The notes under the pieces: generated by a model
What the model was told of the DNA's origin: nothing
Database searches by the model: none
What the model saw: the letters and a program-made list of their open reading frames with translations, nothing else
Part shown: positions 41,173-44,194 of the stretch, piece after piece
Position numbering within the stretch: position 1 is the first letter of the stretch
How the letters are laid out: every line of letters begins with the position of its first letter
Origin: Candidatus Kaiserbacteria bacterium
Lineage (GTDB): Bacteria; Patescibacteriota; Minisyncoccia; Phycocordibacterales; UBA918
Reading direction: 5' to 3'
Length of the DNA stretch: 63,438 bases
NCBI GenBank assembly: GCA_043770255.1
Contig: JAYVIL010000085.1
Location: 1 to 63,438 of the forward strand
Program-made: the position numbers and the translations under genes

Positions 41173-41904
41173 TTATGAAGTACTACTCATTAAATTTTGT
41201 TTTTTATTCTCATTTAGCAAACCTGTGGCAAGCAAATCATCTACAGAAACTATTTTTTGTTTTACTAGATCATGATAAATTGTTTCACTAGAACCACCCA
41301 TTTCCACCAATTTAGAAAGGACACGATTACTAAGTTCTCGGTCAACTGGCGCTGAAATATTTTCGTAAAACTCATCGCATATTTTTTTAACCTCGGCTTC
41401 AATCTTAACTACCTCATCGCCACTAAATTTTACTTGACCAAAAAACTCACTTTCAGAATCATCGTTGTGTGAATGTTGGTAGCTGGCAATTTTTTCAATA
41501 CCAATATACAACTCTCCTGGTGTAGCTGCATTTGAATAATCACCAGTATCTAACAATTGGTTATCACGAACCAACTCAACTACGTTTCTTTGATTGTGCG
41601 ATTCTATTACTGAGCTCTCAATTGAAGATATGGATTTATCTTCTTTATCGTCGGTATCTGATATACGTTGTAATGAGTTACCTTCAGAAATTCTGTCTAA
41701 AATGTAGTTTGAGATTTCTTCTGCTGAAGCCGGCTTTACCTCTTCAGTGAAATTTTGAACTACGGTGCTATACATATTATGATTTGCTGCCCATCTTGAA
41801 AAACCAACAAACTTTCCTGTTTTTTCGGACAATAAGTTTTCAACTTTTTTTAGAGTTTCTTTAAACTTTATTTCTCGCAAAGATTCAAATGTATTTTTTT
41901 CCAT
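41173..41904 (-). CDS. hypothetical acidic protein, AT-rich gene
   Basis: A 243-aa ORF with no recognisable motif and lower GC than its neighbours. Confidence 0.45.
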   Translation of the reverse strand: MEKNTFESLREIKFKETLKKVENLLSEKTGKFVGFSRWAANHNMYSTVVQNFTEEVKPASAEEISNYILDRISEGNSLQRISDTDDKEDKSISSIESSVIESHNQRNVVELVRDNQLLDTGDYSNAATPGELYIGIEKIASYQHSHNDDSESEFFGQVKFSGDEVVKIEAEVKKICDEFYENISAPVDRELSNRVLSKLVEMGGSSETIYHDLVKQKIVSVDDLLATGLLNENKKQNLMSSTS

Positions 41905-42641: not shown

Positions 42642-42844
42642 GGTTAGTTTTCTTAATTTATTGGTAATTAAGAATGAGAGTATGGCATGGGCCTGCTTTC
42701 ATTCTTCGCATAGTGCAGCCCCGTACCAGTTATGGTTGGGCTTCATCCTTTATCTTTAGCGAATATAGACTATTTATAAACTTCCATCCTGCACTCAAGA
42801 TACATTATGTCTCAAGTTGCCAAGTTATTTCAAAGCGAAAGAAA

Positions 42845-42935
42845 TTGACGTAGATGCGAGGCGAACAAAGAAAATTTTGTGAGCCGTATTTTTATACGGT
42901 GAGTGAAATTTTACTGCAGTTCAACGACGCAGATG
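42845..42935 (+). repeat. copy B of the hairpin element (rpsL/rpsG spacer)
   Basis: Hairpin at 42871-42912 with apex CCGTAT-TTTT-ATACGG and tail CAACGACGCAGATGCG. It is flanked by direct ACG(T/C)AGATGCG. Confidence 0.6.
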
Positions 42936-42942
42936 CGTTGAT

Positions 42943-43356
42943 TTATTTTGCTTTGGGTTTTTTGGCGCCGTAGCGTGACCGTCCCATTCGTCGTTCTGCC
43001 ACTCCAGTCGCATCGTATTTACCACGAACGATAGTGTAGTTAACGCCGATGTCCTTCACACGACCTCCACGTACAAGCACTACTGAGTGCTCCTGGAGAG
43101 TGTGCTTGATACCTGGGATGTACGCGGTAATTTCCATTCCGTTTGAGAGACGTACACGAGCAATCTTTCGAATCGCTGAGTTCGGCTTACGCGGAGTTTT
43201 GGTAGTTACGCGGGTACATACACCACGTTTGAACGGTGAGTTGTAGTAATTCGGCTTGTTCTCGATTGAGTTGAAACCTGCATACAACGCACCAGTCTTG
43301 CGCTTAGTAACTGGGTCGACACGCTTCTTTCTTGTTAATTGATTTATTGTTGCCAT
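42943..43356 (-). CDS. rpsL: 30S ribosomal protein S12
   Basis: 137 aa, [12 protein letters not shown]...[16 protein letters not shown]...[10 protein letters not shown]. Confidence 0.97.
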
Positions 43357-43371
43357 AAAGCTCGGCTAGAA

Positions 43372-43398
43372 TACTACTATTAGCCATAATTTGCAAGG
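43372..43398 (-). promoter_or_regulatory. candidate rpsL promoter
   Basis: On the minus strand: CTTGCAA-ATTATGGCTAATAGTAG-TATTCT. The same TTGCAAATTATGGCTAATAGT string ends both 119-bp direct repeats upstream. Confidence 0.35.
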
Positions 43399-43456
43399 CT
43401 GAGATATAAAAGCGACAGGTTTTACATACTACATATTTTGGCTATTAATTAGCCTG

Positions 43457-43575
43457 TAGGTAGACTGGTTTGGAAATGGGACGGATAATTTTATTAGGAA
43501 TAAAAATTACCGTCAAAATTCGCAATTGTCACTACGTTCTGTTGCTCATTTTACTATTAGCCATAATTTGCAAAG
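43457..43575. repeat. 119-bp direct repeat, copy 1
   Basis: Matches 43859-43977 with about 3 mismatches, at an offset of 402 bp. Confidence 0.85.
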
Positions 43576-43595
43576 ACAGACCTAATCGGGCAAAG

Positions 43596-43795
43596 AAAAA
43601 CCGCCTCAAAGAGACGGGTTGCAGGCGGGTACGGGCGGAGGCGACATACCGATGTGGGAAACGTACCCACCTGCTTAGGCGGGGAGATCCCCACTCGGTA
43701 ACTGTTTGTTAGTTGAGAACGTGTGCAGGTGGGCCCAGCCGATATGCCTATAGTGGAAAACCCCACCTGCACTGCCCGTTCTCCACCAGGCAACT
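43596..43795 (-). ncRNA. candidate structured RNA / attenuator-type leader ending in an intrinsic terminator, upstream of rpsL
   Basis: No credible ORF. The minus-sense fold has a closing stem (GGTGGAG/CTCCGCC, with a G-U pair only on this strand), a long hairpin (GAGAACG..GTGCAGGTGGG / CCCACCTGCAC.CGTTCTC), a second branch (TACCGA/TCGGTA enclosing GGGGATCTCCCC and GTGGGTACGTTTCCCAC), then CCGCCT..AGGCGG + TTTTT. The 5' boundary is uncertain. Confidence 0.45.
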
Positions 43796-43858
43796 AAATC
43801 TTCCAATACAGTATCAGTAACAAAAAAAAACGCAAGTTGATTAATGTGATGGTTGATT

Positions 43859-43977
43859 AGGTAGACCGGTTTGGAAATGGGACGGATAATTTTATTAGGA
43901 ATAAAAATTACCGTCAAAGTTCGCAATTGTCACTACGTTCTGTTGCTCATTTTACTATTAGCCATAATTTGCAAGGA
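43859..43977. repeat. 119-bp direct repeat, copy 2
   Basis: See 43457-43575. Confidence 0.85.
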
Positions 43978-44194
43978 GAAATAATGAGCCACAAACACCC
44001 CGGGTGCTTATTTAAAGTATTAAAAAGGGTCCGGCATTACTGATAGATGCCGAACCCTATTCGCAACTACTGAAGCGCTAACTCCATTAGTTACTCTTCA
44101 TAAGCAGGACAATCCCTATCCGAGAAACAAAAATAGTACATCCCACTGCCGAATTACTAGACTATATCATTAGAATGAGTAAAGTAAAGTTAAA

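Follow-up and report, generated by a model that had tools for sequence, protein, structure and literature searches.

What is the strongly folded, G+C-rich stretch just upstream of the ribosomal protein gene rpsL in this Candidatus Kaiserbacteria genome, and does it control that gene? The window analyzed here is the whole of contig JAYVIL010000085.1, 63,438 nucleotides (nt) long, which is contig C85 of a genome (G000; assembly GCA_043770255.1) of 0.93 Mb in 104 contigs that is 85.5% complete and has a G+C content of 44.3%. An earlier note on this DNA had read the stretch as an attenuator or riboswitch leader of rpsL, with mutually exclusive terminator and antiterminator pairings. We call it element X: a G+C-rich RNA element on the minus strand, at 43796-43618, followed by its terminator at 43617-43601. 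Element X is a real, strongly folded and strand-specific small RNA of an undescribed family. The explanation to which we give about an even chance is that it forms a family of its own, an independently terminated small structured RNA that would be made either as the 3′ end of the transcript of the upstream peptidase gene or as its own unit, and that would exist as a free RNA.

On the minus strand, region 43800-43590 folds with −94.1 kcal/mol, compared with a mean of −70.3 kcal/mol (standard deviation 4.5) for shuffled sequences (z = −5.31), and 0 of 200 shuffles were as good; the plus strand reaches z = −3.14. The structured RNA is thus specific to the minus strand, as the earlier note had proposed. 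G.U pairs are present in helices C1, C2, A1 and A2 (Table 1) and in the terminator, and the opposite strand would give A.C mismatches at these places; the minus strand is therefore the functional one. The island between the two repeats that flank element X has a G+C content of 57–64% in 100-nt windows, and element X itself, which is single-copy in G000, has 57%, compared with the genome-wide value given above. An independent 354-nt contig (43544-43897) reproduces this region with no differences and at the depth of its flanks in two sequencing runs, indicating that the assembly of element X between the repeats is sound. Runs X5 and X6 gave no coverage of element X, which we counted neither for nor against it. 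The runs that contain G000 are sediment or unspecified metagenomes from one study.

How widely is element X distributed? A blastn search of all 128 genomes of the genus returned one real match (78% identity over 108 nt, E = 3.5e-17), at locus L044 of the congeneric genome G137, and the remaining seven matches were only 22–38 nt long. Element X is therefore present in two of the 128 genus genomes, G000 and G137, both by blastn and by R2, a model built from the 3′ halves of these two copies. G137 carries the 3′ half only, about 50 nt past the stop codon of its peptidase gene and followed by a terminator and then an rpsL promoter-like site; it shares 84 of 109 aligned bases with G000 over domain 2. 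A 22-mer common to G000 and G137 was then used for exact scans of two collections. Among species-representative genomes it found one record, identical to L044 and counted once with it, and among metagenome contigs it found one record, the activated-sludge contig L053. L053 contains a full-length element X (183 of 210 aligned bases identical, with indels of 2, 3 and 5 nt), directly flanked by the peptidase stop codon on one side and the rpsL promoter-like site on the other, without the 120-bp repeats of G000. All three copies thus sit between an M50 peptidase gene and rpsL, in the same position and orientation, with 13–25% of aligned bases differing. As a side observation, the peptidase gene and the 3′ part of element X are joined on an 831-nt contig of one relative, and contigs belonging to other relatives jump from 44194 to 43398.

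Wider searches added no member. Model R2 found none in 150 genomes of the order (one 14.7-bit hit at E = 0.32 was taken as chance), a gapped motif found none in 400 genomes of the class, blastn of the element X core against 60 relatives gave terminator-sized matches only, and the phage and plasmid collections contained no match. The gapped motif also matched four viral contigs, which we discarded as chance matches, none of them matching R2 at E ≤ 1. A single-sequence model, R1, detected nothing in 100 genus genomes and, with filters off, nothing at the spacer of 29 rpsL loci of relatives, its best match there (20.5 bits) being a stretch of 35% G+C downstream of rpsL in locus L035, on both strands. 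The surroundings are common in the genus: rpsL was located in 39 of 41 sampled genomes, and the peptidase gene lies upstream of rpsL, as in G000, in 28 of the 29 relatives' loci. Window positions 43405-44193, compared with these 29 loci, had no match except, in one locus, a 25-nt piece of the promoter. Direct reading of the spacer in five relatives showed about 44–200 nt between the peptidase stop and the rpsL ATG, with plain hairpins at most. The conservation upstream of rpsL in relatives on which the earlier note had made its reading depend is accordingly absent, with 2 of 128 genus genomes and, with R1, none of the 29 loci containing the element. On these comparisons, the family is real and, within the searched genomes, confined to three close relatives.

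Rfam gave no match at the gathering threshold in the whole window; at E ≤ 10, the locus gave chance-level matches only, the best being anti-hemB at 18.3 bits against a threshold of 49.5, mostly from the terminator, and the G137 copy likewise gave chance-level matches only (best E = 0.42). ARAGORN found neither a tRNA nor a transfer-messenger RNA (tmRNA). The Rfam search that the earlier note had called for thus agrees with its impression that the RNA matches no known family. The note had also seen no credible open reading frame between the repeats. A 78-amino-acid (aa) frame (43557-43793) does run across element X, but neither it nor two further frames over the element had a Pfam match, an 86-aa frame across the L053 copy (L053 1436-1696) had no relative among 5.8 billion proteins, and the indels of the homologues disrupt the reading frame. 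For these reasons we regard element X as not protein-coding. Two candidate identities were tried and dropped. A substitute for the signal recognition particle (SRP) RNA or 6S RNA did not fit, as by eye element X lacks the motifs of both and close relatives do not carry it; the Rfam models of bacterial small SRP RNA and 6S RNA have no match in G000, which is 85.5% complete. A layout like that of the hepatitis delta virus (HDV) ribozyme was set aside because it would require unpairing of a section of helix C that includes a covarying pair; Rfam HDV-type families do not match element X.

Alignment of the three copies revealed the internal organization of the RNA. It is built from a repeat unit of about 85 nt, of which G137 has a single copy and G000 and L053 each have a tandem pair. 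Domains 1 and 2 are paralogous, since R2, built from 3′ halves, gives a hit of 16.7 bits (E = 0.0017) to the 5′ half (domain 1) of the L053 copy, and 35 of 87 alignment columns are invariant across the five domains. The single domain of G137 is preceded by GATTCAGTT, as is domain 1 elsewhere, and the motif GATT(C/T)AGTT is common to G000, L053 and G137. By its sequence, element X in its long form is a tandem duplication of one domain. Each domain contains two long helices, C and A, of which helix A connects the 5′ end of the domain with the loop of helix C. The strand order A5′ < C5′ < A3′ < C3′ holds in all five domains, with loops of 10–17 nt (L1), 3–5 nt (L2) and 10–13 nt (L3). This is the strand order of an H-type pseudoknot in 5 of 5 domains, the sufficiency of the loop lengths being an estimate. 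Evaluated separately, since the energy models and RNAalifold as used exclude pseudoknots, the two helices have energies of −18 to −24 kcal/mol (helix C) and −10.5 to −15 kcal/mol (helix A). Helices A and C would either coexist as an H-type pseudoknot or be two alternative folds formed in turn.

Both helices are supported by compensatory changes. In helix C2, 13 of 13 pairs are standard in all three sequences, one pair appearing as C-G, U.G and U-A and another as U.G or U-A; this best-supported helix contains the 12-bp pairing that the earlier note had seen and had taken for an antiterminator. Helix A of domain 2 keeps 11 of 11 pairs in all three sequences, its strands being invariant except for one A-U that becomes G.U. 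Taken together, 72 of 72 cells of domain 2 are paired, with one helix C pair changed on both sides and a one-sided change once per helix, and the paired cells fall from 100% to 28–46% in slid controls. In helix C1, one G-C turned into G.U in L053. Comparison of the paralogous domains shows, among the six outer pairs of helix A, two with substitutions on both sides (A-U to G-C and G-C to U-A) and one with a substitution on one side, and only 6 of 135 two-substitution variants of the helix A 3′ strand would keep six pairs.

The pairings named in the earlier note all exist, within 1 nt of where it had put them, yet they fare unequally in the comparison. In L053, two C-to-U changes leave its closing stem GGTGGAG/CTCCGCC paired, but this stem has no counterpart in G137 and shares its bases with helix A1. 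The extension GAGAACG/CGTTCTC of its long hairpin meets an A.A mismatch in L053. Its multi-branch drawing as a whole is merely one among several competing folds. Similarly, the outer stem of the full-length minimum-free-energy fold, which pairs the 5′ end with the 3′ strand of C2, has two mismatches in L053, and the competing helix C2 is kept. The hairpins listed by the terminator scan include one inside domain 2 of L053 (1535-1518), CCCGCC/GGTGGG with a T-rich run after it; it can form in G000 too, and the scan does not list it in G137.

Does element X end in a switch? A terminator-like hairpin is found at the same position in G000, L053 and G137, 3–10 nt after helix C2, and in the G137 stem two pairs differ and both remain paired. 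The earlier note was right that the structured RNA ends in an intrinsic terminator (43617-43601 plus T5) but had drawn the wrong hairpin. It had assigned the role to CCGCCT-N16-AGGCGG, whereas the actual terminator has a 7-bp stem and a 3-nt loop; the CCGCCT/AGGCGG stem is present in G000 and L053 and loses two of its six pairs in G137. The segment GTACCCGCCTGC (43633-43622), which was to overlap a terminator arm, does not overlap 43617-43601. With helix C2 off the terminator and the extended stem broken in G137, the proposed conserved, mutually exclusive antiterminator falls away.

A promoter-like site between the terminator and rpsL bears on the same question. In G000 it consists of TTGCAA (43396-43391), a 17-nt spacer and TATTCT (43373-43368), ahead of the rpsL ATG at 43356. 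The arrangement TTGCAA-17-TATYNT, 11 nt before the rpsL ATG, recurs in L053, in G137 and in five relatives (TTGCAA, a 17-nt spacer and TATCTT or TATTGT in the latter), the hexamers being conserved and the spacer variable. Conserved hexamers around a variable spacer are the pattern of a promoter, which would leave rpsL almost no leader. The site lies downstream of the element X terminator in all three copies. Element X ends about 70 nt (L053, G137) or 240 nt (G000) before the rpsL ATG, and in G000 a 120-bp repeat and 58 bases separate it from the working rpsL promoter. An attenuator or riboswitch reading of element X is thus not supported by the sequence comparison: there is no conserved overlap with the terminator, the promoter-like site lies downstream of that terminator and the element occurs in only 2 of 128 genomes. 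We also observed no Shine-Dalgarno-like sequence at 43368-43398 or at the same site in L013-L016, L035, L044 and L053, and in this genus translation of rpsL may begin on an mRNA with almost no leader. A similar arrangement is seen at the G137 peptidase gene, with TATACT 9 nt before its ATG.

How, then, would element X be made? Its start in L053 and G137 is about 50 nt past the peptidase stop, on the same strand, and terminator scans of these two loci list none between the stop and element X, so the peptidase transcript would run into it; element X would there most simply be the 3′ end of that transcript, and its arrangement would be that of a 3′ untranslated region. In G000, a hairpin with a T5 run (44057-44022) intervenes. 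This new terminator and a repeat would have cut element X off from the peptidase gene, so transcription would start from a promoter-like site in repeat A, TTGACG-17-TAAAAT (43917-43889), which at 10 of 12 positions is the best upstream of element X in G000. A weaker site, TTGCGT-16-TACTGT (43835-43808), scores 6 of 12 by eye, below the scan threshold. The product would comprise one or two domains of about 85 nt, each with a long hairpin (helix C) whose loop pairs with the 5′ strand of the domain (helix A), always with one intrinsic terminator after them. We infer from the sequences, as regards transcription mode, stability and any function, a free terminator-capped RNA that would either bind a protein or RNA or protect a 3′ end, and that would not act as a switch on rpsL.

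Several observations weigh against this reading. The comparison comprises three sequences from one small clade, and 336 of 500 shuffled alignments show at least as much covariation as the real one, so between-genome covariation alone carries no statistical weight. RNAalifold favors local hairpins over helix A; the domain loops are variable, and local hairpins within them can compete with this helix, and helix A also competes with the closing stem GGTGGAG/CTCCGCC for the same bases. The hexamers just upstream of element X match at 6–8 of 12 positions by eye, below the scan threshold. No complementarity longer than 14 nt to element X was found in the G000 genome (E = 0.57) and no single-stranded conserved seed was found in element X, which leaves a trans-acting base-pairing role without support. 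Leaky read-through into rpsL also has to be reckoned with, because Naville & Gautheret (2010, PMC2965389) describe "rpsL-leader" premature terminators in many phyla, with no sequence or structure common between phyla.

Such read-through is what a cis-acting leader of rpsL-rpsG would exploit, whether as a lineage-specific "multiform rpsL-leader" or as a riboswitch: transcription would stop at 43601 or continue into rpsL, and S7, S12 or a ligand would tip the RNA toward the fold with helix A or the one with helix C. We consider this unlikely. It would explain why all three genomes have element X immediately upstream of rpsL and on its strand and why a terminator is accompanied by several alternative pairings; the occurrence of single and tandem domains recalls tandem riboswitch aptamers, and PMC2965389 reports attenuators without shared structure upstream of rpsL in distant phyla. 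In the two-domain forms, GAGAACGGG of domain 1 could even pair, by eye, with the 5′ arm of the terminator, but this possible antiterminator has no counterpart in single-domain G137, and the one proposed earlier lies off the real terminator, while the extended terminator stem proposed with it breaks in G137. A leader is further contradicted by the conserved promoter-like site between terminator and rpsL, by the presence of element X in 2 of 128 genus genomes, by the spacers of two of the five relatives, which have the promoter directly after the peptidase stop, and by the lack of any matching Rfam riboswitch or leader family. If element X were instead merely an elaborate 3′ end of the M50 peptidase transcript, serving termination, insulation of the rpsL promoter and exonuclease protection with no function of its own, its place about 50 nt past the peptidase stop in L053 and G137, with no other terminator listed, would follow directly. 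Two of the five relatives (G001 and G018) have plain hairpins at this place, and the spacers of the other three are shorter. That a single hairpin is enough in relatives also speaks the other way, as interleaved 11–13-bp helices with compensated changes and two paralogous domains exceed what a terminator needs. G000, moreover, already has a hairpin and T-run after the peptidase gene and yet keeps element X intact, which is a weak argument because the rearrangement is recent (its repeats are 98% identical). On balance we regard a mere 3′ end as improbable.

A non-functional explanation would make element X a sequence prone to duplication, or what is left of a mobile or foreign element, tolerated in a spacer. 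The very narrow distribution, the G+C content of 57% against 44% for the genome, the internal duplication and the recent repeats at the G000 locus all fit such an origin. We nevertheless hold it to be very unlikely: element X matches nothing in the phage or plasmid collections, is single-copy in G000, has neither terminal inverted repeats nor an associated gene, and keeps the same place and orientation at 13–25% divergence, with the differences in the tabulated domain 2 helices and in C1 preserving pairing. A bolder idea, which we regard as a long shot, goes beyond the free terminated RNA favored here. The ~85-nt domain would be a new functional RNA module of the ultra-small bacteria of the Candidate Phyla Radiation, a long-stem pseudoknot that is used alone or as a tandem pair and serves as a ligand or protein sensor through switching between A and C, or as an exonuclease-resistant knot. 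In the latter version, which would be the bacterial equivalent of the exonuclease-resistant RNAs of viruses, an mRNA 3′ end may become a small RNA that is stable.

Element X matches no described family, and its architecture of interleaved helices in singlet and tandem forms is unusual; comparison with known systems shows where the likenesses end. With the rpsL-leaders described in PMC2965389, it shares a structured element and an intrinsic terminator upstream of rpsL on the same strand. It differs from them in having a promoter-like site downstream of the terminator and no conserved antiterminator overlapping the latter, and in its absence from 126 of the 128 genus genomes. Riboswitches with tandem aptamers, the glycine riboswitch for example, present a homologous domain once or twice ahead of one terminator, as element X does; the helices of element X are, however, long and almost perfect (11–13 bp), and it has no Rfam riboswitch match, no terminator-overlapping expression platform and no metabolic gene downstream. 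The E. coli leaders bound by S15 (rpsO) and S4 (alpha operon) are pseudoknotted operators that include the ribosome-binding site of the regulated gene. Element X resembles them in its interleaved helices, as a pseudoknot or two hairpins, adjoining a ribosomal protein gene, but ends well before the rpsL ATG (about 70 or 240 nt, as above), with the promoter-like site between. In type III antitoxin RNAs of the ToxI type, tandem pseudoknot units of about 36 nt are followed by a terminator and then by a toxin endoribonuclease gene; element X also has tandem units able to form pseudoknots and then a terminator, but its units measure about 85 nt and the gene downstream is rpsL, not a toxin gene. Tandem pseudoknotted modules are also known from tmRNA, with its strings of H-type pseudoknots, and from the exonuclease-resistant RNAs of flaviviruses, which lie in a 3′ untranslated region, as element X would in L053 and G137; against these stand the ARAGORN result for tmRNA and the Rfam result.

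To our knowledge, very few structured RNAs have been described from the Candidate Phyla Radiation. As a compact, strand-specific, duplicated domain that occurs naturally in singlet and tandem forms, element X offers a tidy object for the study of pseudoknotted versus bistable folding. It also carries a caution: a terminator-bearing structure upstream of rpsL need not be an rpsL attenuator, as comparative data here put the promoter downstream of it. Unless further members turn up, the three known copies limit its general importance.

The features of the locus are listed in Table 1.

Table 1 Features at and around element X, in window coordinates unless a contig is named
Feature	Position	Strand	Remarks
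M50-family peptidase gene	44827-44195	-	Pfam PF02163, E 7.6e-15
Peptidase-to-repeat A stretch, 217 nt	43978-44194	-	includes the hairpin + T5 at 44057-44022
Hairpin, 11-bp stem, 9-nt loop, + T5	44022-44057	-	~140 nt past the M50 peptidase stop
Repeat A	43858-43977	-	24-nt rpsL-promoter copy, then 96-nt E element copy
A+T-rich spacer, 61 nt, 5′ of element X	43797-43857	-	weak promoter-like site and conserved GATTYAGTT start of the RNA
Element X domain 1	43723-43795	-	helices C1 and A1
Helix A1	43792-43783 with 43756-43745	-	6+4 bp, 2-nt bulge
Helix C1	43772-43762 with 43733-43723	-	11 bp
A-rich variable linker joining domains 1 and 2	43704-43722	-	alignment
Element X domain 2	43621-43703	-	helices A2 and C2
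Helix A2	43700-43690 with 43658-43647	-	6+5 bp, 1-nt bulge
Helix C2	43674-43662 with 43633-43621	-	13 bp
Intrinsic terminator, 7-bp stem, 3-nt loop, T5	43596-43617	-	terminator scan
Repeat B	43457-43576	-	24-mer at the original rpsL promoter position (judged against L053), E element after it
Stretch of 58 nt between repeat B and third 24-mer		-	
Third 24-mer copy (43398-43375) + -10 hexamer	43368-43398	-	apparent working rpsL promoter
rpsL	43356-42943	-	
rpsG	42641-42171	-	
E copies in the repeats	43457-43552 and 43858-43953		
Five partial E copies on four other contigs	C54:2770-2808, C58:6175-6266, C58:11094-11132, C37:4763-4798, C7:3699-3730		loci L004-L007, L009

The two direct repeats that the earlier note had seen on either side of the RNA were readily recovered as repeats A and B, 120 nt long and 98% identical. 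Each begins with 24 nt copied from the rpsL promoter (its -35 hexamer and spacer), joined to an element of 96 nt, E, and the 24-mer is present three times at the locus. Past the element X terminator, the G000 sequence is collinear with L053 up to the promoter spacer, where E follows, and the third 24-mer restores a complete promoter at rpsL. On these grounds, the comparison identifies the 120-bp repeats as a recent, G000-specific rearrangement of the promoter region, outside the RNA. Copies of E sit right after stop codons or ahead of genes, the usual start being directly after a stop codon. Common to them are a conserved 5′ box (AAATGAGCAA...GTGACAATTGCGAA) and, after it, a hairpin with a stem that varies among copies yet stays paired; two hairpin types are seen, and contig C54 carries a second, tandem copy of the later part of E. 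From these features, E could be like a repetitive extragenic palindromic (REP) element or a miniature inverted-repeat transposable element (MITE), or a terminator module.

The hairpin between the peptidase gene and repeat A has a counterpart in neither L053 nor G137 and, judged from its sequence, is probably the peptidase terminator in G000. It shows up as a 12-bp helix when 43978-44194 is folded, and it is outside the terminator-scan listing, its loop being longer than 8 nt. In an unrelated freshwater run (X5), a contig of 151 nt matches 44017-44167 with two differences, a stretch that includes this hairpin and its T5 run.

Two observations concern the genes downstream. In the classical str operon, fusA comes after rpsG; 3′ of rpsG in the window there is instead a 243-aa open reading frame (41173-41904) with no significant Pfam match. 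The spacer between rpsL and rpsG (42642-42942) measures 300 nt, long for this pair, and contains a promoter-like TTGAAA-18-CATAAT on the gene strand; from its length and sequence, it could carry an S7 operator or another RNA.

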